In this document: in pieces, positions 6,903 to 59,843 of the stretch
How positions within the stretch are numbered: the first letter of the stretch is position 1
Layout: each line of letters begins with the position of its first letter
From: an uncultured Chloroflexia bacterium
Lineage (GTDB): Bacteria > Chloroflexota > Limnocylindria > Limnocylindrales > CSP1-4
Assembly: GCA_963844945.1 (NCBI GenBank)
Contig: CAWJQZ010000059.1
Span: 377,440 to 441,439, forward strand
Length of the DNA: 64,000 nt
Direction of reading: 5' to 3'
Position numbers and translations under genes: made by a program
The notes under the pieces: model-generated
Database searches by the model: none
Told to the model about the DNA's origin: nothing
The model's input: the letters and a program-made list of their open reading frames with translations, nothing else

Positions 6903-7088
6903 GTGCTCGCTCGCGCGGAGATGCGGAGGGAGCGTCGCGCAGTCGGCTGCGTGTTTGGGCAGCCACCCCCGGGCGACCCCTGGTACCGCGCCCTGCACCT
7001 AGAGAACGAGGCCGGCGCGTTGGCAACGAGGCTCCGCCGGCTGCTGGATGACCCGCGGACGTGGCGGGAGGAGGAACCGGACAGGTGA
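6903..7088 (+). CDS. Small hypothetical protein immediately upstream of the recombinase (possible directionality factor)
   Basis: Tail of ORF 6270..7088. Candidate starts are GTG 6903 or ATG 6921, and the stop overlaps the recombinase GTG (GTGA). There is no motif support. Confidence 0.3.
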   Translation: MLARAEMRRERRAVGCVFGQPPPGDPWYRALHLENEAGALATRLRRLLDDPRTWREEEPDR

Positions 7089-8641
7089 GTGGCCACTACC
7101 TCATCTACATCCGTCGTTCGTACAAGGAGGCGTCGGCCGCCGACGTCTCCGACGAGACCCAAGAGGCCGTCGCCCGGTCCCTGCTGCCGAAGGACGCGAC
7201 CTGCGAGGTCATCAGCGACTCCGGGGGCCACAACTCCGGGGCCACGGACGACCGCGAGGGCTACCGGCGTCTCATCGCTCGCGTCCGGGAGGGCGGGATC
7301 GCTGGCATCGCCGTCTACGACCTCTCGCGGCTAGCCCGGAACGTGCGGCTCATGGTCAACCTCAAGGACGAGTTGGAGCGCCAGCAGGTCGCCATCCTCG
7401 CCGGGAACCTGCCGACCACCAAGACCGACAGCGCGGTCGGGCGGTTCATGTTCAACATGCTCGTCTCGGCGGCCCAGTTCCAGCGCGACCTCACATCTGA
7501 ACAGATGAAGACCCAGGCCGAGCGGACGTTCCTCCGGGGAGGCCACCGAGGCAACGACCCGCTCGGCTACCGGACCGCTCGGGACGCCGACGGCACGGTC
7601 TGCAAGCCCCGACGGCTCGTCGTGGTTCCCGAGGAGGCGGCGGTCGTCCGACGGGTGTTCCACCTGTTGCGGGACATGCCGTTCTCCGAGATCGCCGCTC
7701 TGCTCAACTCCGAGGGGGTCCGGCGCCGCTCGTCGTCACCGTGGACGGTCGACGCCGTGAAGGACATCTGGCGTCGGCGTGAGGTCTACCGGGGGAACGT
7801 GGTTACCAAGCGCGGGCTCGTGATTTGCACGCCGGCCGAGGCGGAGGTCGTCGCCTTCCATGAGCCCATCCTGTCGGAGCAGGAGGTCCGGGACGCGACC
7901 GCCGGCGTCGACGCCCGTGTTCGCCACCGGGCGCGCAAGCCACGCAACGCCAAGCGGTTGTACGCCCTCCGGGGGACGGTCTTCTGCGAGTGCGGCGCCC
8001 GCATGCGCGGGGACGCCCGCATGAACCGCGGCAAGACGTGGCGCTACTACGCGTGCCCGGCCGCGGAGGGGCGGTCGACGCTCCGGGACGCCGACGGCAA
8101 CCTTGTGGCGTGTGATGCCCACCGGGTTGTGGCGCTCGACGCGGAGCGCGTCGTAGTCGACGCGATGCTGGAGGCCGTGCTGCCGGCGGAGGCGATCGAC
8201 CGGGCCAACGAAGAACTGCGGCGTCGGCTCGCCGCGCCCGCGCCCGGGACGTCAGACAAGACCAGAGAGCGGCTACGCGGTCGGCTGGGGCGGCTCGCCG
8301 ACCTGTACGCGTGGGGCGACCTGTCCGAGGCCGACTATCGCAAGCAGAAGGCCGAAGTGGAGGGCGCGCTCGCCGCCCTACCGGGTGAGAGCGACAAGGT
8401 CGTGCTGTTCGACCGCCACCGGCGGGTCGTGGGGTCCCTGGCAGACACGCTCGCGGACGCGACGCCGGAGGCCGTGCAGGAGTTCGTGGCGCTGCTCGTG
8501 GAGCGCGTCGAAATCAGGGACCGTCAGGTCGTGCGAGTCGAGTGGGCCGCGCCGGCGCGCCCGTTCTTCGCCTCCGAGGCTTGGGTGCGGGACTGCGCTG
8601 GTCTGGCGCGCCCGGAGGGATTCGAACCCCCGACCGTCTGA
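7085..8641 (+). CDS. Large serine recombinase (integrase)
   Basis: GTG 7085 after GGGAGGAGGAA. Resolvase catalytic N-terminus YLIYIRRSYKE...AVYDLSRLARN, a recombinase domain, a zinc ribbon CECGARMRGD...YYACP, and a coiled-coil C-terminus. The last 38 nt lie inside tRNA-Arg. Confidence 0.9.
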   Translation: MSGHYLIYIRRSYKEASAADVSDETQEAVARSLLPKDATCEVISDSGGHNSGATDDREGYRRLIARVREGGIAGIAVYDLSRLARNVRLMVNLKDELERQQVAILAGNLPTTKTDSAVGRFMFNMLVSAAQFQRDLTSEQMKTQAERTFLRGGHRGNDPLGYRTARDADGTVCKPRRLVVVPEEAAVVRRVFHLLRDMPFSEIAALLNSEGVRRRSSSPWTVDAVKDIWRRREVYRGNVVTKRGLVICTPAEAEVVAFHEPILSEQEVRDATAGVDARVRHRARKPRNAKRLYALRGTVFCECGARMRGDARMNRGKTWRYYACPAAEGRSTLRDADGNLVACDAHRVVALDAERVVVDAMLEAVLPAEAIDRANEELRRRLAAPAPGTSDKTRERLRGRLGRLADLYAWGDLSEADYRKQKAEVEGALAALPGESDKVVLFDRHRRVVGSLADTLADATPEAVQEFVALLVERVEIRDRQVVRVEWAAPARPFFASEAWVRDCAGLARPEGFEPPTV

Positions 8642-8679
8642 TCCGAAGTCAGATGCTCTATCCACTGAGCTACGGGCGC
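8604..8679 (-). tRNA. tRNA-Arg(TCG): tRNA-Arg (anticodon TCG), CCA encoded
   Basis: Reverse complement reads GCGCCCGTAGCTCAGTGGATAGAGCATCTGACTTCGGATCAGACGGTCGGGGGTTCGAATCCCTCCGGGCGCGCCA. It has a 7-bp acceptor stem, a GCTC/GAGC D-stem, anticodon loop CTTCGGA and T-loop GGTTCGAATCC. Confidence 0.9.
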
Positions 8680-8750
8680 GCGGCGCGGAATTGTACATGA
8701 GAGGCGCACCGCGGGCCGAGACCGTGGCAAGCGCCAGACCGCGGATGCGT

Positions 8751-8785
8751 CGACGCCCCGGGCCCCTCTCGGATCCGGGGCGTCG
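8751..8785 (-). terminator. Hairpin downstream of the IPT-domain gene
   Basis: An 11-bp inverted repeat cgacgccccgg / ccggggcgtcg with a 13-nt loop, about 33 nt after the stop at 8818. There is no clear U-tract. Confidence 0.35.
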
Positions 8786-8817
8786 AGGGTGCGTCGTGGC
8801 CCGCGGCGGGCCGTGGA

Positions 8818-9679
8818 TCAGGGCATCACGTAGAAGGTGTTGGCGCTCACGGTGCTGCCGAATGGCGAGGCTCACGCCGATCTTGCCCGTCCTCGCTCCC
8901 ACCGGGACCGTCGCGACGATCCAGGATGGGCCGCGGACGCTGAAGGCGGCCGGGACACCGTTGAACGTGACGCGGTTCGCATAGCCGAAGTTGACGCCGA
9001 GGATCGTGACCGTCGCGCCGACGCGTCCGTTCATCGGGCTGAACGAGTTGACGATCGGCGCCCTCGCCGGGCTCGCCCGGTAGATCCCGAATTGGCCGGT
9101 GAAGACGTTCCCGCCGGAGGGATCGTTCGTCGCGAGGGTGATCTTCGCGATCGGGCTCGCGGAGGTCGAGTAGAAGCCGAAGTACTTCGCGGAGACGACC
9201 CCACGGTTCGGGCTCACCACGACCGGGCCGGACGTGGTCCCGTCCTGGGCCGTCGCGGTGATCGTCCACGTGCCACCGGCATACGTGTCGCTGTACAGGT
9301 AGAAGGCCTTCGTGTCGGCCGGGAGCGTCAGGACCTCAAGGCTCGTGTCGAATCCGGGGATGTCGTAGATGTGCCCGGTGTAGGTGGCCGGCCAGCCCCA
9401 GGTCACCGAGGAGTCGAGGATGAACTGCGGCATGTTGAACCCGAGGACTCCACCGCCCGGAGCCGGCACGGAGCCGATGGTGCTACCGGCGTTGTACCCG
9501 TCCGGCCCGAAGGGGGTCATCGGGTAGCCGCCCAGGGTGGGGGGCGGGTCGCCCGTCCCGGGGCTGCCGTCGAAGAAGATCCCGTTCGACGCGCCGGTCG
9601 GCGCTGGCAGCGCGGCGATGACGAGGGCGAGCGCGGCTGCGCCCACCGTGAGCCGACGGAAACGCGGTCGGATGGACAT
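8818..9679 (-). pseudogene. Secreted protein with C-terminal IPT/TIG domain, one frameshift as assembled
   Basis: ATG 9679 after GAGAGGGG. Signal peptide MSIRPRFRRLTVGAAALALVIAALPAPTGA. IPT-like PIVNSFSPMNGRVGATVTILGVNF...GARTGKIGV. The frame changes near 8870-8880, and the natural end ASPFGSTVSANTFYVMP* is in another frame. The listed ORF otherwise reads through the tRNA. Confidence 0.6.
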
Positions 9680-46789: not shown

Positions 46790-49352
46790 GTGACGATCGA
46801 GCGCGACCAGGAGTACCTCGTCCAGCCGGTCGACGCGTCCTGGCTCCAGTGCAACATCGAGTGCCAGGAGGCGTGCCCCGTCGGCACGAATTGCCGCGGG
46901 TACCTCAACCTCGCCGCTGAGGGGCGGTTCGAGGAGGGGTACATCCTCTCGCGCGACCCGAACCCGGTCGCCGCGATGTGCGCGTACGTCTGCTCCGCAC
47001 CGTGCGAGCGCGCCTGCCGGCGCGGCGACATCGACCGCCCGCTCTCCATCCGCGCGATGAAGCGGTTCCTCGTCGAGTGGCACGAGATGTCCGGGATCCC
47101 GGACGTCATCCCGGTCGTCGAGTCTCGCGACGGAGAAGGTCGCGATCGTGGGCGCAGGCCCGGCGGGTCTGGCCGTCGCGCGTGAGCTCGCGGTGAAGGG
47201 GTACCAGGTCACGGTCTTCGATGCCCTGCCGTTCGCGGGCGGCACGATGCTCATCGGCGTCCCCGCGTTCCGCCTCCCGCGCGAGGCGATCGAGATGGAC
47301 GTCCGCCTCATCGAGCGCCTCGGCGTCACCTTCGTCTACGACACGAAGATCGGCGTGGACATCCCGTTCGAGGACCTCCTGCGCGACTTCGACGCGATCG
47401 CGATCACCGCGGGCGCGATGGACGCGGTCCCGCTCGACATCCCCGGCTCGGACCTCGAGGGCGTCCAGTACGGCGTCGACTTCATGAAGAAGGCGAACCT
47501 GGGCGAGCCGCTCGAGGTGGGCAACGACGTCGTCGTCGTCGGCGGCGGCTACACCGCGATGGACTGCTCGCGCACCAGCCTCCGCTACGGCGCCGCCAAC
47601 GTGACGATCGCCTACCGCCGCACGCGCTCCGAGCTCGTCGTCGACGAGGAGGAGCTCGGGGAGACGGAGCGCGAGGGCGTCCGCATGGAGTTCCTCGTCA
47701 GCCCGATCGAGCTGATCGGCGAGGACGGGAAGCTCACCGGCGTGAGGTTCATCCGGAACAAGCTGGGCGAGCCGGACATGTCCGGCCGCCGCTCCCCGGT
47801 CCCGATCGAGGGCTCCGAGTTCGTCGTCCCGGCGCAGACGCTCATCCCGGCCGTCTCCCAGGCGGCGGACCTGTCGTTCCTCCCGGTGGAGTCGAGCTTC
47901 GAGGTCGCCCGCGGCCGGCTCAAGGTGGACCCGGCCACGTACGCCACGAACGCGAAGGGCGTGTTCGCGTGTGGGGATTTCGTCACCGGCCCGGCGACGC
48001 TCATCGAGGCTGCCGGGCACGGCAAGAAGTGCGCGTACGCGATCGACAGGTACCTCGCGGGGCGGTCGGACGTCACGGTGGACACGAACGTGCGGATCAC
48101 GAGCTCGTGGCGCCACGAGATGCCTGAGCTCTACGACCGGATCCCGCGCCAGCACGTGCCGGTGCTCCCGGTCGGGGAGCGGATCGTGTCGAGCGACCCG
48201 GTCGTCAACTTCACGACCCCGGTCGAGCTGGGCTACACGGCGCAGCAGGCCGTGGCCGAGTCCACGCGCTGCCTCATGTGCAACTTCAACATCTGGTTCG
48301 ACCCGTTCCGCTGCACGCTCTGCGGCGCCTGTGCGGATGTCTGCCCCGAGGGCGTCATCCACATGGTGGACATCGATCGCCTGCGTACCGAGGGGACGCT
48401 CCCGGAGATCGAGGATGCCTACGGCTGGGAGCGCGGGGCGGCGATGGTGCTCGACGAGGAGCGGTGCATCAGGTGCGCCTTGTGCGTGAAACGATGCCCG
48501 TTTGATGCCATTACCATGGAGCGGTTCGAGCTTCAGGAGATCTCGAGCGACGGTCGGCTCTACAAGGAGTCGTACCGTGATGCGCAGCTTGCCGGCGACG
48601 CCCGGCGTGGCAGGAGGGGCCCGGTGAGCTTCCTGGAGCGGGTCGACCAGAGCATCCGGCGGAGTCCGGTATGGCGCTCCCTGTTCCGCAACCCGTACCC
48701 GAACGACGAGCGGTCGCGCGCGTACGCGGTGATGAACAACGTCTTCCTGCACCTCCACCCGGTGCGGGTCCGCCAGCACGCGGTGAAGTTCGCCTACACC
48801 TTCTGCCTGGGCGGGCTCTCCTTCTTCCTGTTCCTCGTGCTGACCGTGACGGGCGTCTACCTGATGTTCTTCTACGCCCCGTCCGCGAACATGGCGTACT
48901 CGAACATCATCCAGATCCAGACCGAGGTCCCGTTCGGGCTCCTGACGCGGAACGTCCACCGGTGGGCCGCCCACCTGATGGTGTTCTTCGTCTTCCTGCA
49001 CATGATGCGGGTCTTCTACCACGGGGCCTACAAGCCGCCGCGCGAGTTCAACTGGGTCGTGGGCGTCGTCCTGCTCTTCCTCACGATCATGCTGAGCTTC
49101 ACGGGCTACCTGCTGCCGTGGGACCAGATCGCGTACTGGGCGATCACGATCGGCACGAACATGGCCGGCTACGCGCCGCTCTTCAACACGCCGAGCAAGT
49201 TCATCCTCCTCGGCGGGCTGGAGGTGGGCCAGAACACGCTGCTGCGGTTCTACGTCCTCCACATCATGGTCTTCCCGCTCCTTGCGGCCATCTTCCTCGC
49301 GGTGCACTTCTGGCGCATCCGCAAGGACGGCGGCATCAGTGGGCCGCTATGA
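46790..49352 (+). pseudogene. GltD-like NAD(P)H/FAD oxidoreductase + 2x[4Fe-4S] ferredoxin + cytochrome b6, fused as assembled (one frameshift near 47131-47147)
   Basis: GTG 46790: N-terminal Fe-S domain CNIECQEACP...CAYVCSAPCERACRR. After the shift comes ORF 47148..49352: [28 protein letters not shown] and [12 protein letters not shown] (GltD/COG0493). Then [12 protein letters not shown] and [12 protein letters not shown]. Then cytochrome b6: [32 protein letters not shown]...[27 protein letters not shown]. Confidence 0.8.
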
Positions 49353-49552
49353 GGACCATCGCGGCGTTGCCGCCTCCGCTCCCTCGCTCACGCACCCCCA
49401 CGTGCGCTGCTCGCGTCGGCGCCTGCGCTGAACGCGCCCTCGGGTGCCGCGGACGACATGACTGACCAGCCGACCATCACGCCCCGAGCGCCGGAGCGGG
49501 TGCAGCCGGTCGACCCGGCCGGCGGACGGAGATCGACAAGCAGCGCCTGCCG

Positions 49553-50060
49553 ATGAGCGCGCGGCCGTACCGGCTGCTCGCGCTCGTCAAGCAGGACGCC
49601 GTCGTCAGGGTCCAGAAGGAGCCCGACGACACGGTCATGACGTGGCCGCACCTGCTCGCGATCGAGTTCCTCGCGGCCGTCATGTTCTCGATCTTCCTGC
49701 TTCTCATGGGCCTCTTCGTCAACGCGCCCCTCGAGGAGCTGGCGAACCCCAACGTCACCCCGGAGGTGGCGAAGGCGCCCGTGGTACTTCCTCGGGCTCC
49801 AGGAGCTGCTCGCGTACTTCCACCCGACGGTCGCCGGCGCCCTCGTGCCGATCTTCGTCCTCGTGGGCGCCGCGCTCATCCCGTACATCGACCGCGGGAA
49901 CATCCTCGCCACCCGCCCGTCGGACCGGAAGACGGCCGTGCTGCTGTTCACGCTCTTCTGCGGCCTCGGCCTCGTCCTCACCTTCATCGGCATCTTCTTC
50001 CGTGGCCCCGGCTACGCCTTCGCGCTGCCGTGGGTGACGGGCATGCACTTCAGCCTCTGA
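49553..50060 (+). pseudogene. Cytochrome b6f/bc subunit IV (PetD-like C-terminal half of cytochrome b), one frameshift as assembled
   Basis: ORF 49553.. gives WPHLLAIEFLAAVMFSIFLLLMGLFVNAPLEELANPNVTPEVAKAP. After an extra base near 49778-49781 it continues as WYFLGLQELLAYF...IPYID (ORF 49845..50060). An N-terminal extension from ATG 49458 is possible. Confidence 0.75.
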
Positions 50061-50079: not shown

Positions 50080-50748
50080 ATGAGCAACTACCAGGTCGAG
50101 CCCGCCGACAAGCCCCAGGCGCTCACGAGCGAGACGCTCAAGGCCATGCGCCACGAGCAGGTCTCCGGCATGTCGCGCCGTCGCCTGCTGCGGACCTCGC
50201 TCGCCGCCGGCGTCGGGCCTCTGGCTCCTCGAGGTCGGCGCGGGCACCATCGGCTTCCTCTGGCCCAACCTGGCCGGCGGCTTCGGCGGCAAGGTGAAGA
50301 TCGGCTCGTTCTCCGACGTGAAGAACGCGAACGCCGGCATCCCGTTCGGCGACGGTTTCCCCGCCTACTACCAGGACGCCCGCGCGTTCATCGTCCTCAT
50401 CGACCCGGCGCGCCAGGAGTTCCTCCCCGGGACGGACACGTCCGGCGACGGCTCGGCCAGAACGTCCGCGGCCTGTACCAGCGATGCCCGCACCTGGGCT
50501 GCAAGCCCAACCCGTGCCAGAAGAACTTCTGGATGGAATGCCCGTGCCACGGGTCGCGGTACGACCGGCTGGGCACGAAGGTGAAGGAGCTCGGCCCGGC
50601 ACCGCGCGGCATGGACCGCTTCGCGCTCGCCGTGGACGACGCCGGCGTCCTCACGCTCGACACCAGCAGGATCACGCTCGGCCCGCTCCCGGTCTCGCTC
50701 GGCCAGCCCGGCCTCGAGCCGCCGAAGAGCCCGACGGGGTGCATCTGA
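50080..50748 (+). pseudogene. Rieske [2Fe-2S] subunit with Tat signal, 2 compensating frameshifts as assembled
   Basis: MSNYQ...SRRRLLRTSLAAGVG (Tat motif). The middle part lies in ORF 50294..50584 (KIGSFSDVKNANAG...). The original frame resumes for the cluster-binding boxes CPHLGC and CPCHGS. Shifts lie near 50215 and 50455. Confidence 0.8.
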
Positions 50749-50799: not shown

Positions 50800-51872
50800 A
50801 TGACCGACACGCCCGGAAACCGAGCCGGAAGAGCGCCTGCCGGCGCCCCGGCCCGACCTGGCGCCGGTCCGGGTCGAGCGCCTCGCGTCGCCGCCGTCCA
50901 CGCGGCGCTTCGGGCTGACCGGCGAGCGCGCGGGTCAGATCGTCCGGCAGAGCGGCAGCGCCCGCGTGGGTCGCCTTCCTCGGCGTCTCGTTCGTCGCGA
51001 TCTTCGTCCTCGCCTACTACTTCTACGAGGTCGGCTTCCCCGGCGTCGCCGACTCCGGGCGGATGGCGAAGGCGCACGCAGATCGCAGGTCGTCACGGAC
51101 GTCTCCCGCGGCTACAAGCTCTTCCAGGCGAACTGCGCGCGCTGTCACGGCGCGCAGGGCCAGGGCGGGATCGGTCCCGTCCTCAACGACCAGATGAAGC
51201 TCCTCGCGCACCTCAACCCGCAGTACCTCGAGAACGTCCTCCAGGTCGGCGGACGCTACGTCTGCGGCGACGCGAACAGCCTCATGCCCGCCTGGGAGCA
51301 GCCGCTCGGGCCGCTCAACTACCAGGAGGTCAACGAGCTCATCGCGTGGATCCGCGCGCCCAATGACCTGAAGTTCGAAGGGATCGATCCGGCGACCGGC
51401 CAGCTCGCGGAGATCTCCGGCTGGCGCGACCCGAACTTCGTCCAGCCGCCCACCGCCACGCCGGTCCCCAACTGCTGGAAGGACGCCTTCGCCGCCCCGA
51501 GCGCCGCACCCAGCGCGGCCCCGAGCGCATCGACCGGCGCGTCCGCGGCGCCCAGCGAGCCGCCGGGCGCCAGCCAGGCGCCCTCCGGCACGGTCATCAA
51601 GATCGTCGCCCAGAACATCGCCTTCGACGTCACGAACATCGAGGTCCCGGCCGACCAGCCGTTCCAGATCGAGTTCGTCGAACAACGACGCCGGGATCCC
51701 GCACAACGTCGCGATCGCCGAGGGCTCGCCCACCGGCCCGGTCGTCTTCCAGGGCGCGATCGTCAACGGCGTGACGACCGTCACGTACGACGTGCCCGCG
51801 CTCAAGGCCGGCACGTACGGGTTCGTCTGCCAGGTGCACCCGAACATGACGGGGACGCTCACCGCGAAGTAG
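50800..51872 (+). pseudogene. Membrane-anchored cytochrome c fused to a cupredoxin (blue-copper) domain, about 4 frameshifts as assembled
   Basis: Reconstructed across frames: MTDTP/ETEPEERL...RFGLTGERAGQIVRQSGSAR / WVAFLGVSFVAIFVLAYYFY (TM) / GYKLFQANCARCHG...LMPAW (c-type haem site) / Ala-Pro-Ser linker / IKIVAQNIAFD...FQIEFV / NNDAGIPHNVAI...GTYGFVCQVHPNMTGTLTAK* (Cu ligands H, C, H, M). Confidence 0.7.
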
Positions 51873-51940: not shown

Positions 51941-53397
51941 ATGGCACAGCAGGCGCTCGGAGCCGGCGGCACGACGGTGACCCGCAAGCGGGCGCTGTTC
52001 GGCCTGCTCGACGCGAACGGCTGGTCGTGGGCTGCCATCAAGGCCCTGTTCTGGTTCACCGTGATCATCTTCATGATGGGCTACATGCCCGACCGGGCCC
52101 TGTACTTCACGATCTTCCCCACGATCGACCTCGGCCTCTCCGTCGTCTCGCCCGTGAACCTCTGCCCCACGTCGAACGGCGAGGGGATGCCCTGCCCGGT
52201 CCCGGCCGGCGCCGTGCTCCCGTGGGAGGTCGGCCCGAGCCGAGCTCACGCTCCCGCAGCCGCGCACGGACGGCGTCGTCGTCCAGTCGGGCACCAACCT
52301 GCTCTACATCGGCGGGTCCACGAACGGGACCGACGCCGTCGCGACGGTCTACGCGTCGCCGATCCGCTCGGCCGAGGGGAACCTGTCGCCCTGGACGGAG
52401 ATGGCGCCTCTTCCGGCGCCGCGCCGCGCCGCGTCCGCGGTCGTGGTCGCCGGCACGGTCTACGTCATCGGCGGCTTCGACGCCTCCGGCGCCCCCACCG
52501 CGACCGTCTTCGCCGGGACGCCGGACACGGCGACCGGCGTCATCTCCACGTGGACGCCGTCCGACGTCCTTGCGCTGCCCGAGGCGCGCGGCGCAGCGTC
52601 GGCCGCGGTCGCGGGCGACGGGATCATCCTCGTCGGCGGGACCGGCCCGTCCGGACCCACCGCCAGCGCGTGGAAGTCGACCCTCGACACCAAGGGTGCC
52701 CCGGCCGCGTGGAAGGCCATGGCCGACATGCCGGAGAAGCGCACCGCCGCGTTCGCCAGCCTCCAGGGCTCGCACCTCTATGTGTACGGCGGCAGCGCCG
52801 AGACCGGGCCCACCACGATCGTCCTCCGGGGGGACGTGAGCGCCGCGAAGGAGACCGTCGGCCAGATCCTCTCGTGGGGCATCAGCCGCGCCGGCTCCAC
52901 CCTGCCGCTCCCGCGCGAGGGCGCTTCGGCGTGGAGCAACGCCGGGACCCTCTACTTCGCGGCCGGCACCGGGCCGGACGCGCAGGGCCAGGTCTGGTGG
53001 GCGATCCCGGACGCGAACGGCGACATCTCCGCCTGGCAGAACCTGCCGGCCTCGGACCTCCCGTCCGATCTGCAGCTCCGAGGCAGCCAGGCCGCCGTCA
53101 GCGGCCCGTACGTCTTCCTCGTCGGCGGCACCACGGCGCAACGGCGTGACCGGCGGCCTCGCGCGAACGAGCCTCGCCCCCAAGCCGCCGTACTTCCAGC
53201 TGGGGATCGTGGGCGCGACCGTGCCCGGGCTCGGCATCGGTGGCGAGGTCGGCCAGCAGCTCGCATACCTCGTCTCCGCCGGCGTCGCGACGGTCAACTT
53301 CGTCATCCTCATCCTGATCGGGCTCGCCTTCGCCCATCCGGACCGGACGAAGCGGCTCTTCTCCCGCGCCCGCCGTCGGGGCCGCCCGGCCGCCTGA
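51941..53397 (+). pseudogene. Kelch-repeat (beta-propeller) protein with N- and C-terminal membrane anchors, 2 frameshifts as assembled
   Basis: ATG 51941 after GGGAGGGA. TM segment WSWAAIKALFWFTVIIFMMGYMP. Six blade-like repeats ending LLYIGG, VYVIGG, IILVGG, LYVYGG, LYFAAG and VFLVGG. C-terminal TM LAYLVSAGVATVNFVILILIGLAFA. Shifts lie near 52235 and 53135. Confidence 0.65.
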
Positions 53398-56795: not shown

Positions 56796-57800
56796 ATGCT
56801 CGCGGCGGTCTTCCACGGTGACGGTGACGTCGGGGTCGAGGAGATCCCGGTGCCCCGAGCCCGCGCCCGACGAGGTCGTGGTCCGGGTCGAGGCCTGCGG
56901 GATCTGCGGGAGCGACGTCCAGATCGCGAACGTCCCACCCGGCCACCCGTCCACGCCCCCGGTGGTCCTCGGCCACGAGTTCGTCGGCCGGATCGCCGCC
57001 GTCGGCTCGGCGCGTCCACGACCGCCCCTCGGCCTGCGCATCGTCATCGACCCGGACCCCAAATGCGGCGCGTGCGCGTTCTGCCGGGCGGGCCGGCCGG
57101 CGAACTGCACGAACATCCGCGCGCTCGGCGTCCATCGCGACGGCGCGCTGGCCGAGTACGTCGCCGCTCCCGCGTCCTGCGCGTTCCCGATCTCCGAGGC
57201 CGTCCCCGCCGAGATCGCGGCGCTCGTCGAGCCGCTCGCCTGCGTCGTGAACGCGACGAACCGGGCGGCGGTCCGGCCCGGGCGAGTCGGTCGTCGTCTA
57301 CGGCGCAGGCGCGATCGGGCTGCTGTTCACCGCGGTGTTCAAGGCGTCCGGCGCGAGCCCGGTCGTCGTCGTCGAGCCGAACCCGCGGCGGCGCGCCGTG
57401 GCGCTCGAGGTCGGCGCCGACCACGCGCTCTCGCCCGAGGAGTTCGCGGAGCGGCGGGCGCACGCTGCTCCCGCTCGGCGCGGACGTGGTCGCCGACGCC
57501 GTGGGGAGCGCGCTCGGGGACGCGATCGACGCCGCCGCGATGGGCGGGCGCATCGTCGTCTTCGGGATGAACGCCAACGCCGTCATGCCCGTACGGCAGA
57601 TCGTCATCACGGACAAGAGTCTCGGGATATTCGGCACGTACATCACGCACTTCACATTCCCGGCCGCCATCCGCATGATCGAGAGCGGCTCTCTGAACCT
57701 GAAGCCGATCGTGAGCGACGTCGTGTCGCTCGCCGACGTGCTCGATGGCCTCGCCCGACTGCGGTCCGGCGAGGCGACGAAGGTGGTGATCGTCCCATGA
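56796..57800 (+). pseudogene. Zn-dependent medium-chain alcohol/threonine dehydrogenase family, 3 frameshifts as assembled
   Basis: ATG 56796 after GAGGAGG. Motifs: VEACGICGSDV, GHEFVGRI, DPDPKCGACAFCRAGRPANC (structural Zn) and YGAGAIGLL (Rossmann). The intact tail ends ...GEATKVVIVP*. Shifts lie near 56853, 57285 and 57465. Confidence 0.75.
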
Positions 57801-58764
57801 GTGAGGCCGTGCTCGCCCCGACGGGTCGCAAGCCGAAGGCCGAACGGATGCAGGTGGCGAACGCGCCCTGCAGCTACGGCGTGGACGAGGTCCTGAAGGA
57901 CGACGCCTGGATGCCGACGGGGCTCCAGGTGCTCGACATGATCGCGAAGGGGGGGTACGAGGGGACGGAGCTCGGCCCGCCCGGCTTCCTCGGGACCGCC
58001 GACGAGCTGCGCGAGCGCCTCGACGAGCGGAAGCTCGCCCTCGTCGGGTCGTTCCTCCCGATGCGCTTCAGCGAGGCCGAGTACGCGGACGAGGACCGCG
58101 CGTGGCTCCGCGAGTCGCTCACGCTCGTCCGCGACGGTGCGCCCGGAGGGCTCCAGGCCGTTCGCGATCCTCTGCGACGGGTTCGACCAGCCGCTCCGGA
58201 TGGAGTTCTCCGGCCGGATCGCCGAGCATCCCGAGGCGTGGCTGCCGGCGGACCGGTTCCCGATCTTCATGGACAACCTCCACCGGGCGGCGGAGATCGC
58301 GCGGTCGATGGGGTTCGACGTCGTCCTCCACCCGCATGCGGGCACGTACTGCGAGACGGTGGACGAGGTGAAGCGGACCATGGACGCCATGGACCTCTCG
58401 CTCCTCGGCCTCTGCCTGGACACGGGCCACCTTCGGTACGGCGGCGCGGATCCGGCCCAGCTGGTGCGGGAGTACAGCGATCACATCCGCCACGTCCACC
58501 TGAAGGACGCGCGGATGCAGGTCATCGCGGACTGCAGGCGCGACGACGTCGGCCTGCGTCGTGGCGCTCCAGCGGGGCGTCTTCTGCGAGCTCGGCCAGG
58601 GCGACTCGGGGCTCCCCGAGGTGATCGACGCGCTGGACGAGGTCGGCTACGCGGGCTGGCTCGTCGTCGAGCAGGACCGCGGGCTCACGATGGAGGACAC
58701 GCTCGACTCCGTCTTCGAGAGCAACGTCCGCAACCGCGAGTACGTCCGCTGCCTCGGCATCTGA
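57797..58764 (+). pseudogene. iolE: Xylose-isomerase-like TIM-barrel protein (sugar phosphate isomerase/epimerase, IolE-like), 2 frameshifts as assembled
   Basis: ATG 57797 overlaps the ADH stop. Segments: VVLHPHAGTYCETVDEV, LCLDTGHLRYGGADP, HVHLKD and the tail GWLVVEQD...REYVRCLGI*. Shifts lie near 58160 and 58555. The symbol is tentative. Confidence 0.6.
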
Positions 58765-58865
58765 GGCGCACGCGAGCGGCGGGGGCGCCGGTCCGGGACC
58801 CCCGGCCGGCTCCGGCCCCCGCAGCCGGCGCTCGCGCTGCCGACATGCCACACCGGGAGGCGACG

Positions 58866-59723
58866 ATGACCTCGGACCTTCTTCGACGCGCCGACCGCGC
58901 CGGACGCGGGCGGCGATCGTCGTCCGTACCGACCCCGCGGACGCCGGCTGGCGCTACCTCACGTTCGGCGTCCATCGGCTCGCCGCCGGGGCGCGGATCG
59001 ACCGGGCCGGCGACGGCGAGGAGGTCCTCGTCCTCGTCCTCGAAGGGTCGGCGGCGGTGACGGCCGGCGACGCGCCCGACGGCGCCGGCGGGACGGCCTC
59101 GGCGGGACCTGGTCCGGCGTGGGTGGCCGCGAGACGGTCTTTCGCCGGCCCCCGCAGGGATGGTGCTCGCCACGCCGGGCGCGGACGTCGCGATCGTCGC
59201 GGAGACGACCGCGCTGGTCGGCGTCGCCCACGCACCGGGGGGCACCGTCCGCAGGACGCGGCTGATCGGGGCCGACGAGGACGTGATGGAGGAGCGCGGG
59301 AGCGGCAAGACCGCCCGCCGCGTCCACCACCTCCTGCCGCCGGGCGGCGACCTCGCCGGGCGGCTCATCGCCTTCGAGGTCTTCACGCCCGGCGGGAACT
59401 GGTCCAGCTACCCGCCGCACAAGCACGACACCGAGGACCCGCCGAGCGAGGCATACCTCGAGGAGCTCTACTTCTACCGGTTCGCCAAGCCGCAGGGGTT
59501 CGCGTTCGCGCGCGTGTACACGGCGGACCGGTCGCTCGACGAGGCGCTGACGCCGACGGACTGCGACATCGTCGTCGTCCCACGCGGCTATCACCCGGTG
59601 GGCGCGCCCGCCGGGTACGACTGCTACTACCTCAACGTGATGGCCGGGGACCACCGCGCGTGGCACTTCACGATCGACCCCGACCACGCGTGGCTCATGG
59701 ACTGGACGCCGCCCGCGAGCTGA
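58866..59723 (+). pseudogene. iolB: 5-deoxy-glucuronate isomerase (IolB), at least 2 frameshifts in the N-terminal half as assembled
   Basis: The C-terminal 187 aa are intact (ORF 59160..59723): FEVFTPGGNWSSYPPHKHD...EELYFYRF...VVPRGYHPVGAPAGYDCYYLNVMAG. The N-terminal part (WRYLTFGVHRLAAG...VLVLVLEG) is in other frames. Confidence 0.75.
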
Positions 59724-59843
59724 CGGCGCCGCGCGGGGCGGGCGGCCGCGACCGACAGGGCGTGGGGGTCGCCGGCCGGCGGCACGGACCCGGCCCGGCC
59801 GGGAGCACGTTCCGCCGCCGGCGTGTGGCCGGACCCGGTCGTC

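Follow-up and report, generated by a model that had tools for sequence, protein, structure and literature searches.

The locus analysed here raises two linked questions: whether a cytochrome b6 and an NfnB/GltD-like flavoprotein are made as one polypeptide, as the assembled sequence reads, and, if they are not, what the flavoprotein has to do with a Rieske/cytochrome b complex. In the window, by which we mean the whole 64,000-nucleotide stretch of DNA that was analysed, an uninterrupted open reading frame of 734 amino acids (aa) runs from 47148 to 49352 on the forward strand. Pfam places Pyr_redox_2 (residues 2–292), two 4Fe-4S ferredoxin motifs (382–460), and Cytochrome_B (548–727) within it, and finds Fer4_20 in a separate upstream frame (46790–47185). 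The domain order given in the original prediction, namely an Fe-S domain, a GltD-like flavoprotein, a ferredoxin, and cytochrome b6, is thus present in the frames as assembled. Our analysis nonetheless shows that the covalent fusion proposed there is a frameshift artefact and that the products are those of separate genes of one operon. The features are as follows.

46790 to 48627, forward strand: NfnB/GltD-like Fe-S flavoprotein, 611 aa, lying in three frames in the window (Pfam, homologues, and repair)
47131, forward strand: extra base, the C in cgcgaCggagaag (three-frame translations)
48596 to 48597, forward strand: extra base, a G, at one of two positions in gccggcGacgcc
48624 to 49352, forward strand: cytochrome b6, 242 aa (tblastn of the protein from the related locus L002; 98.8% identity in a single frame)
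49458 to 50060, forward strand: subunit IV, about 199 aa (tblastn frames; orthologue sequence and hydropathy)
50080 to 50748, forward strand: Rieske [2Fe-2S] protein, 222 aa (Pfam Rieske; per-frame identity to the L002 orthologue)
50810 to 51872, forward strand: fusion of a membrane-anchored monohaem cytochrome c and an amicyanin-like cupredoxin (Pfam on the window ORF)
51941 to 53385, forward strand: Kelch-repeat beta-propeller protein (Pfam, synteny, frames, and hydropathy)

Two 1-nucleotide insertions break the flavoprotein gene. The first, at 47131, puts the Fer4_20 domain and the FAD-binding GAGPAG motif that follows it in different frames; a single indel had been predicted at about 47135, which located this base well, but the second, at 48596/7, had gone unsuspected. 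The latter puts the tail of the flavoprotein in the frame of cytochrome b6, and the apparent fusion arises because this extra base removes the flavoprotein stop codon. The position of the 47131 repair was set by exhaustive single-base deletion scored against P0002, the nearest database protein, and the repair was validated at the protein level. Deleting both bases yields a 611-aa Fe-S flavoprotein that is identical to P0002 at 604 of 611 residues. Past 48596/7, the adjacent frame reproduces the exact C-terminus of this 99% identical homologue, which ends in GGAR like those of P0008 and P0031, and in the sequence GTGA the true stop (TGA, 48625–48627) shares bases with the GTG start codon of cytochrome b6, a separate protein of 242 aa.

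A single flavoprotein–ferredoxin–cytochrome b6 polypeptide of about 95 kDa would account for the unbroken ORF and for the same domain combination in two other database proteins, P0001 and P0012. However, the reading that creates it also severs the conserved N-terminal Fe-S domain from the FAD fold, and the same two single-base deletions restore both the match to P0002 and a stop that overlaps the b6 start. P0001 and P0012 are the only two of the 120 best flavoprotein matches to join a flavoprotein and a cytochrome b, and both are garbled by out-of-frame stretches, with a frame switch at 7963/7965 in locus L001; none of the remaining 118 has a cytochrome b domain, and over 100 homologues of 610–611 aa are likewise without one. 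A stop codon closes the flavoprotein gene in 24 of 25 Limnocylindria-type loci, with the 4-nucleotide overlap in at least 13, and the Cytochrome_B domain was absent from ten longer family representatives checked for natural fusions. We therefore give a real fusion next to no credence. P0162 was also considered as a natural fusion and rejected: its N-terminal His-rich membrane domain is unrelated and hits no Pfam family, even with the cut-off relaxed to E ≤ 1, and its gene sits in a different, Fer4_11-linked context. Programmed frameshifting was ruled out, since the orthologues are plain single ORFs. In the repaired reading a stop codon separates the ferredoxin and b6 parts, as it does in nearly all relatives, but the GltD-like gene itself is kept in the orthologous clusters of all 22 Limnocylindria species loci. 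That this gene might belong to a transcription unit of its own is very unlikely given the GTGA overlap.

The insertions are part of a wider pattern. Comparison with L002 by tblastn and frame by frame revealed at least ten frame switches between 46.8 and 53.4 kb. Subunit IV is split near 49775 and probably again near 49530, the Rieske gene carries two indels, +1 near 50216 and −1 near 50455, the second compensating for the first, the cytochrome c–cupredoxin gene switches frame near 50950, 51086, and 51677, and the Kelch gene switches twice. None was found in the 8.5 kb upstream (38.2–46.7 kb), which is syntenic with L002. Given this patchiness, real gene decay in the strain retains a small probability, and the same pattern is what best suits the idea that the frameshifts are genuine and that inactivation has recently turned the whole Rieske/b6 operon into pseudogenes. 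We nevertheless think such inactivation highly unlikely. Unrelated genes at 56.8–59.8 kb are split in the same way, consecutive frames matching consecutive parts of ADH_N/ADH_zinc_N and AP_endonuc_2, and a GC3-phase plot shows other parts of the window, too, broken into many short segments. An operon decaying under relaxed selection, with ten indels, is also hard to reconcile with an amino acid sequence that is almost unaltered (7 differences in 611 residues from P0002, and the near-identity of b6 to its L002 counterpart). Finally, the same type of frame switch is seen in the relatives, which are contig_NNNN-style MAGs (MFD isolates), and the long-read MAG loci L019, L020, and L028 are frame-switched in the flavoprotein gene at other positions. 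The assembly of the window is thus generally indel-rich and was probably made from long reads. A promoter and terminator scan of 46.4–54.4 kb gave signals at or below shuffle expectation. The nearest relatives are MAGs of the Limnocylindria (Chloroflexota), and the original assignment to a high-GC Gram-positive-type genome was wrong. The artefact is a caution for the annotation of indel-rich MAGs: at high GC and with overlapping stop and start codons, one inserted base can join neighbouring genes without meeting a stop.

Once repaired, the 67-kDa flavoprotein is predicted to comprise an N-terminal Fer4_20 domain that holds two clusters, Rossmann folds for FAD and NAD(P)H, and, at the C-terminus, a ferredoxin domain of the 2x[4Fe-4S] type. 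Its best structure matches by phmmer are 9bov/9bp5 (E = 5e-108), and its ferredoxin domain (residues 501–580) matches 5t5i_F. With NfnB/GltD (COG0493) and the long Bfu-type relatives (NfnABC, 9bov/9bp5; StnC, 8oh5) it shares the succession of Fer4_20 and the two Rossmann folds, and the similarity spans residues 20–570, including the ferredoxin domain. In contrast to these systems, it has neither a domain nor a neighbouring gene for NfnA, GltB, or a molybdopterin partner, and its genomic partner is a membrane Rieske/b6 complex. Its neighbours in L002 and L003 are b6, subunit IV, Rieske, and cytochrome c genes.

Cytochrome b6 is complete and of the four-helix type, as predicted, with all four haem-ligand histidines where solved b6 chains place them (His112/His213 and His126/His228 by alignment); Cys61 aligns with the attachment site of haem cn. 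Its closest PDB entry is the cytochrome b6 of spinach (E = 9e-53; query residues 59–242 to chain residues 33–215). It also has an N-terminal extension of 26 residues with a conserved WRSLFR...FLHLHP motif that includes His43. All 14 aligned cytochromes b, every one of which is flavoprotein-linked, have this histidine, which lies 18 residues ahead of Cys61.

The genes said to follow directly downstream, for subunit IV, a Tat-Rieske protein, and a cytochrome c–cupredoxin, were recovered by Pfam, tblastn, and synteny with L002. The 199-aa orthologue of subunit IV has three transmembrane helices in a hydropathy scan, and the Qo motif is APWY in intact orthologues (KAPWYF in L002, L006, and L030). 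The Rieske protein, with orthologues in L002–L028, carries a twin-arginine signal (SRRRLL) and the boxes CPHLGC and CPCHGSRY. Ser and Tyr in box II are a sign of a high-potential cluster, and we take CPCHGSRY to be such a high-potential signature here. The cytochrome c–cupredoxin, the presumed high-potential acceptor, has a CxxCH haem motif and the sequence CTVHPNM; its L002 orthologue is 351 aa long, with Cytochrom_C and Cupredoxin_1/Copper-bind domains. The Kelch protein, with transmembrane helices at its N- and C-termini by hydropathy, is kept directly downstream in L002 and L003.

The association of the flavoprotein gene with Rieske/b6 genes is real. In all 22 Limnocylindria species loci examined after a genome scan with a six-sequence alignment as query, the flavoprotein gene lies directly upstream of b6, at 51–87% flavoprotein identity, and the operon order is the same: flavoprotein, cytochrome b6, subunit IV (APWY), Tat-Rieske, and cytochrome c–cupredoxin. 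The linkage also recurs outside this class, in another Chloroflexota lineage, in Nitrospinota, and in other lineages. It is seen, at 41–44% identity and in varying gene order, in L006, L088, L089, and the Nitrospinota locus L030. A protein search with L030 added two more linked relatives, the Chloroflexi MAG locus L091 and the Nitrospinae locus L092; both L030 and L092 carry multihaem cytochrome c. Among the best 120 matches of the L030 search, the names were Nitrospinota, Chloroflexi, Dehalococcoidia, and Desulfobacteraceae, and no anammox-named protein occurred among the best 120 matches of either this or the window flavoprotein search.

Adjacency could arise if the flavoprotein were simply a co-transcribed neighbour, a soluble NADPH:ferredoxin or NfnB/GltD-type oxidoreductase that serves soluble partners and is not a subunit of the complex. 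Consistent with this, it has no transmembrane helix by hydropathy, its nearest solved relatives are soluble bifurcating enzymes, and close family members lie away from any nearby cytochrome b (P0124 at 49% identity and about 56 genome loci at 32–44%). Several observations argue otherwise. The adjacency spans several phyla, holds at identities as low as 41%, and persists where the gene order is rearranged, and the 4-nucleotide stop/start overlap suggests that translation of flavoprotein and b6 is coupled. Within 10 kb of the gene, neither L002 nor L003 encodes a partner resembling NfnA or GltB, and the linked cytochromes b have their special N-terminal extension in common. In addition, the equivalent anammox oxidoreductases are modelled as docked n-side subunits (Kuste4569-73 and Kustd1480-85; PMC12954380). 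A mere neighbour thus seems to us quite unlikely, although in any of these hosts the proposed tie between flavoprotein and complex rests on gene adjacency.

The original statement that GltD-like subunits occur in Rieske/cytochrome b clusters of anammox bacteria was correct: two clusters of Kuenenia stuttgartiensis, Kuste4569-4574 and Kustd1480-1485, both contain a gene for a putative NAD(P) oxidoreductase (PMC12954380). These complexes comprise a b6-like cytochrome b, subunit IV, a Rieske protein, and the putative NAD(P) oxidoreductase, which has FAD and four Fe-S clusters, and the closest structures to the oxidoreductase Kuste4570 are 9bp5 (NfnABC) and 5t5i (FwdF) (PMC12954380). By published description, the Limnocylindria operon matches them in kind. 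Both have a split b6-type cytochrome b with a haem cn cysteine and bis-His b haems, a separate subunit IV, and a Rieske protein. In both, the cluster also encodes a soluble flavoprotein with sites for FAD, NAD(P), and four Fe-S clusters; the structures nearest to it are the same (by sequence match here, not by fold), and an n-side position is proposed for it on the strength of the anammox models. A possible further likeness, by residue number, is a histidine near position 43 of the cytochrome b N-terminus; His43 of Kuste4571 and His62 of Kustd1481 might bind an additional haem b where the two halves of the dimer meet (PMC12954380). The differences lie in the host, an anaerobic planctomycete with an anammoxosome rather than a Limnocylindria-type Chloroflexota, and in the p-side partner, which consists of hexa- or octahaem cytochromes and an HAO-like protein in anammox but of a monohaem cytochrome c–cupredoxin here. 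Subunit IV has five transmembrane helices in both anammox complexes (PMC12954380) as opposed to three here, and here the flavoprotein gene comes first and overlaps b6.

Two other systems offer comparisons. The APWY clade is defined by a split cytochrome b and an APWY Qo motif, is listed for Chloroflexi, Nitrospirales, Planctomycetes, and deep Actinobacteria, and is described as uncharacterized, with atypical or reverse working proposed (Kao & Hunte 2014, PMC4122944). The operon shares the split cytochrome b and the APWY of subunit IV, its membership being assigned by motif rather than by tree, and the searched sections of that study make no mention of an associated flavoprotein. With the chloroplast and cyanobacterial b6f complex, which provides the best PDB match of b6, the locus shares the four histidine ligands, the haem cn cysteine, a three-helix subunit IV, a blue-copper acceptor (plastocyanin in b6f), and the idea of a flavoenzyme donating or accepting electrons on the n side, although the FNR association in b6f is debated. 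Unlike b6f, the locus has no cytochrome f and no small Pet subunits, and its Qo motif is APWY rather than PEWY; the b6f flavoenzyme is a plant-type FNR, whereas here it belongs to the NfnB type, has an Fe-S chain, and is encoded inside the operon. The operon is thus a further case of a described but uncharacterized type of complex, not a new fusion protein. Our literature searches found nothing relevant on such a gene cluster outside anammox or in Limnocylindria, and the passages searched in Limnocylindria genomics and Nitrospina genome papers do not mention it.

Taken together, the explanation that we consider probable is an operon of separate genes in which the flavoprotein acts as an n-side NAD(P)(H) module of a Rieske/b6 complex, the fusion being a frameshift artefact. 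As read from gene content, the module is likely wired to the low-potential haems; placing a pyridine-nucleotide module on the low-potential side, as the original prediction did, is by analogy the same idea as the published anammox hypothesis (PMC12954380). In this model, the flavoprotein would dock on the cytoplasmic (n) face of the Rieske/b6 dimer, where its four Fe-S clusters would connect FAD/NAD(P)(H) to haems bn and cn, possibly together with an additional haem bound at the conserved His43. Oxidation of quinol at the Qo site would send one electron downhill through Rieske, cytochrome c, and cupredoxin to a terminal oxidase, and the second, which is strongly reducing, would travel via the b haems and the Fe-S clusters to NAD(P)+ and reduce it. 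Operation in reverse is also conceivable, with NAD(P)H delivering electrons to the Qn site. We favour the direction toward NAD(P)+ reduction, which is the least certain part of the model. Counting against the proposal, Limnocylindria are aerobic heterotrophs, hosts for which a need for bifurcation-driven NAD(P)H would be conjectural.

The flavoprotein could instead be a true subunit that works in reverse, with electrons passing from NAD(P)H through FAD and the Fe-S clusters to haem cn/bn and the Qn site. The donor would then sit on the n side, as FNR would on chloroplast b6f, the Q cycle would be of the Mitchell type, and the complex would act as an NAD(P)H:cytochrome c/cupredoxin oxidoreductase. 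In favour of this, b6 has the haem cn site, and NAD(P)H oxidation would be physiologically sensible if, as we assume, the host is an aerobe with an oxidase-directed cytochrome c–cupredoxin. Conversely, the APWY motif of the clade and what we take to be a high-potential Rieske signature fit a very low-potential b-haem chain. For chloroplast b6f, an FNR association and an n-side donor route have been discussed (PMC7908018), whereas the anammox authors judge the NAD(P)H-oxidizing direction wasteful for their complexes, and their scheme needs high Rieske potentials (PMC12954380). We regard the reversed direction as rather unlikely.

In summary, NAD(P)-oxidoreductase Rieske/cytochrome b complexes have so far been discussed as an anammox peculiarity, tied to nitrite reduction and the anammoxosome. 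That the module is kept in all Limnocylindria examined, with a simple cytochrome c–cupredoxin as acceptor, and occurs in Nitrospinota and a second Chloroflexota lineage as well, widens its distribution and weakens anammox-specific explanations, and it makes Limnocylindria simpler, probably oxygen-linked systems in which to test the hypothesis that quinol bifurcation yields NAD(P)H. More tentatively, Limnocylindria, Nitrospinota, and other lineages may use a Rieske/b6 complex with a built-in NfnB-like NAD(P) module as their respiratory complex III. Bifurcation at Qo would then drive NAD(P)+ reduction, with the downhill electron passing through cytochrome c–cupredoxin to oxygen, as we assume; a Mitchell-type Q cycle fed by NAD(P)H would be the alternative mode. 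If this is true, the "anammox-specific" NAD(P)H-producing Rieske/b complex would be a widespread, oxygen-compatible third operating mode of complex III, found in lineages that include a whole class of soil and freshwater Chloroflexota, the Limnocylindria.

The apparent fusion of flavoprotein and cytochrome b6 is an assembly artefact. In the assembled sequence (G+C ~74%), the relevant reading frames carry the following Pfam domains.

Reading frames as assembled and their Pfam domains
46790-47185, frame directly upstream of the ORF: Fer4_20
47148-49352, + strand: 734-aa ORF
Residues 2-292 of the ORF: Pyr_redox_2
Residues 382-460 of the ORF: two 4Fe-4S ferredoxin motifs
Residues 548-727 of the ORF: Cytochrome_B

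The cytochrome b6 part contains His112, His126, His213 and His228 as well as Cys61, all at the sites that an alignment with solved cytochrome b6 chains leads one to expect (in spinach 6rqf_I, chain 33-215 pairs with query 59-242 at E = 9e-53). The domains were thus correctly described in the original prediction. However, its proposal of a single polypeptide is contradicted by a homologue search covering 5.8 billion proteins, in which the nearest relative, P0002, shares 99% identity with the flavoprotein part but has 611 aa and no cytochrome b domain, an architecture repeated in more than 100 further matches of 610-611 aa. P0002 ends in ...[17 protein letters not shown], whereas the assembled frame of the window reads ...[26 protein letters not shown] at the flavoprotein tail and the neighbouring frame reads ...[10 protein letters not shown], then a stop. 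When each possible single-base deletion was tried around both suspected sites, removal of base 47131 together with base 48596 or 48597 yielded a product of 611 aa in which 604 of 611 residues match P0002. This repair brings back a TGA stop (48625-27) that shares bases with the GTG start codon of cytochrome b6 (48624) in a GTGA overlap. Separate open reading frames are also the rule elsewhere: the flavoprotein gene is stop-terminated in 24 of 25 Limnocylindria-type loci, with the 4-nt overlap in at least 13. The lone exception, L001, switches frame at 7963/7965 and encodes P0001, which with P0012 makes up the only two "fused" database matches; out-of-frame stretches are visible in both. Elsewhere in the flavoprotein family, the 820-aa P0162 (L090 2260-4722, GCA_004196295.1) carries a genuine His-rich domain (3-4 TM helices, no Pfam match) at its N-terminus, and its gene adjoins one for a Fer4_11 protein; membrane-domain fusions therefore exist in the family, although not with cytochrome b6. 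Three Dehalococcoidia-type members (P0127, P0321 and P0322; ~725-730 aa) have an N-terminal response-regulator receiver domain before the Fer4_20/FAD/ferredoxin core.

Frame switches were mapped by tblastn of proteins from L002, a clean syntenic contig, against the window, and the subunit IV gene is among those affected. Between 56.8 and 59.8 kb, three unrelated genes are each spread over two or three frames; therefore, indel errors are general in the window.

Frame-switched genes in the window
Rieske gene: +1 near 50216, -1 near 50455 (tblastn)
Cytochrome c-cupredoxin gene: three switches (tblastn)
Kelch gene: two switches (tblastn)
56800-59800: Zn-dependent alcohol dehydrogenase, successive frames matching ADH_N, ADH_zinc_N 1-48 and ADH_zinc_N 56-128
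56800-59800: xylose-isomerase-like TIM barrel protein, two frames matching successive parts of AP_endonuc_2
56800-59800: IolB-like protein, successive frames

The distribution is patchy, with at least 10 frameshifts in the 6.6-kb operon region (46.8-53.4 kb) and none detected in the 8.5 kb upstream (38.2-46.7 kb), which is syntenic with L002. Such unevenness could point to real gene decay in the window's strain, but decay fits poorly with near-perfect amino-acid conservation (98.8% identity for b6, for example), and we give it a small probability. Under assembly error, the patchiness may reflect local coverage, or a consensus drawn from mixed strains where the sequence is highly conserved. The relatives are MAGs named MFD... 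with contig_NNNN identifiers, and in L019, L020, L027 and L028, mostly MFD long-read assemblies, the flavoprotein gene (7001-8835) is frame-switched at other positions. Public protein sets from such MAGs will hold truncated or chimeric versions of the flavoprotein.

The operon runs from 46790 to ~51872, possibly to ~53385 if the Kelch gene is included. Its gene order is read from L002 and a second clean syntenic contig, L003.

Gene order and product lengths in L002 and L003
Flavoprotein, 611 aa
Cytochrome b6, 242 aa, 4-nt overlap with the flavoprotein gene
Subunit IV, 199-200 aa
Rieske protein, 222-224 aa
Next protein, 351-358 aa, cytochrome c plus cupredoxin by Pfam in L002
Kelch-repeat protein, last in order

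A search for TM helices in the flavoprotein found none. Eight Cys in its Fer4_20 domain, GAGPAG, GGGYTAMD...YRRT and two CxxCxxCxxxCP motifs are taken, by reference to NfnB/GltD proteins, to bind FAD, NAD(P)H (probably NADPH) and four Fe-S clusters. Among solved structures, the flavoprotein is closest to the long NfnB-like chains found in two bifurcating complexes, NfnABC (9bov/9bp5, 5e-108) and Stn (8oh5); NfnB proper and GltD come next, and FwdF-type polyferredoxins match the C-terminal domain. As predicted, subunit IV, a Tat-Rieske protein and a cytochrome c-cupredoxin follow b6, both in the window and in L002. The Rieske protein bears a twin-arginine signal together with the boxes CPHLGC / CPCHGSRY, with a Ser/Tyr signature that we take to be high-potential. 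The putative acceptor (50810-51872) is one polypeptide in which a TM anchor is joined to a monohaem cytochrome c (CxxCH) and to an amicyanin-like cupredoxin (CTVHPNM in an orthologue); for Rieske/b complexes, a fused acceptor of this sort is unusual. The L003 counterpart, 49% identical to the L002 protein, has no recorded Pfam match. Directly 3' of the operon, on the same strand, the gene for a Kelch-repeat beta-propeller with N- and C-terminal TM helices is conserved (window 51941-53385; L002 15146-16597; L003 15062-16492). Subunit IV is three-helical, and by its Qo motif, APWY, the complex belongs to the uncharacterised "APWY clade" defined by Kao & Hunte, in which Chloroflexi, Nitrospirales, Planctomycetes and deep Actinobacteria are already listed (PMC4122944).

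Judged from sequence, a Rieske/b6 complex does have a GltD-like NAD(P)H/ferredoxin module genetically wired to it, and this pairing is conserved. A genome scan gave 22 Limnocylindria/Chloroflexota species loci (flavoprotein identity 51-87%), all 22 with flavoprotein, b6, subunit IV, Rieske and, where the locus reaches that far, cytochrome c. In a 50%-identity representative library, identity falls from 82% to at most 49% beyond the Limnocylindria cluster, and the linkage recurs in several of the next-nearest lineages that could be placed in genomic context, including Nitrospinota and another Chloroflexi MAG.

Next-nearest lineages in genomic context
L006, 53% GC: flavoprotein, b6, subunit IV, Rieske, dihaem c, EB_dh
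L088, JGI metagenome: flavoprotein, b6
L089, MAG: NapC/NirT cytochrome, flavoprotein, Rieske, unsplit cytochrome b
L030 and L092, Nitrospinota: Rieske, b6, subunit IV, multihaem c, flavoprotein
L091, another Chloroflexi MAG: flavoprotein, b6, subunit IV, Rieske, dihaem c

No Rieske/cytochrome b linkage was found for P0124 (49% identity) or in ~56 genome loci at 32-44%, and the linkage therefore marks a subfamily, not the whole family; P0129, whose 2.7-kb contig reaches just 80 nt upstream of the gene, was left out of this tally. At L089 (5522-7312), the unsplit cytochrome b has 417 aa and carries Gly where the haem cn Cys would be, with a NapC/NirT-type multihaem cytochrome upstream; thus, the linkage is not limited to haem-cn-bearing split b6 forms. 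All linked cytochromes b aligned (including window 48624-48800, L006, L030, L088 and L089) share an N-terminal extension, W[RKQ]S[ILV]FR ... F[LY][LM]H[LI][HF]P, that to our knowledge is absent from canonical b6, and its His (His43 in the window), 18 residues before the haem cn Cys, is invariant among them. Of the original prediction, then, the covalent link fell to the stop between the ferredoxin and b6 parts, whereas the association stood, as the GltD-like gene is kept in orthologous clusters.

The original prediction's pointer to similar clusters in anammox bacteria proved right. Kuste4569-74 and Kustd1480-85 of Kuenenia stuttgartiensis encode a b6-like cytochrome b, subunit IV, Rieske, multihaem cytochromes c and a putative NAD(P) oxidoreductase, and quinol-based bifurcation to NAD(P)H has been proposed for these complexes, a proposal that fits measured Rieske potentials above +300 mV (PMC12954380). 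In AlphaFold3 models of them, FAD and four Fe-S clusters lie on the n side, and an additional haem b is bound by His43 (Kuste4571) or His62 (Kustd1481) (PMC12954380). The structures named as closest to Kuste4570, 9bp5 and 5t5i (PMC12954380), are also matched by the Limnocylindria flavoprotein in sequence searches, and His43 of the window bears the same number as the Kuste4571 residue predicted to hold the interfacial haem. In contrast, the anammox subunit IV has five helices rather than three, the p-side partner is a multihaem protein rather than a monohaem cytochrome c-cupredoxin, the flavoprotein gene comes first in the window operon, and the hosts differ in phylum and lifestyle. The window operon thus adds to a type of complex already described in anammox bacteria; orthology to the Kuenenia genes and the equivalence of the two His43 residues are leads. 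In the literature, subscription journals aside, we found no description of this cluster outside anammox.

The sequences demonstrate the gene content, cofactor-binding motifs, separate ORFs, stop/start overlap and conserved linkage. We infer that the flavoprotein would form a peripheral arm on the n side, its Fe-S chain joining FAD/NAD(P)(H) to haems bn/cn. We lean to a direction in which bifurcation at the Qo site would drive NAD(P)+ reduction, because of the analogous anammox proposal, the APWY clade and the Ser/Tyr Rieske signature. Reverse flow, in which NAD(P)H feeds the Qn site in a Mitchell-type Q cycle, is a serious rival, with an analogue in the debated FNR-b6f route in chloroplasts (PMC7908018).
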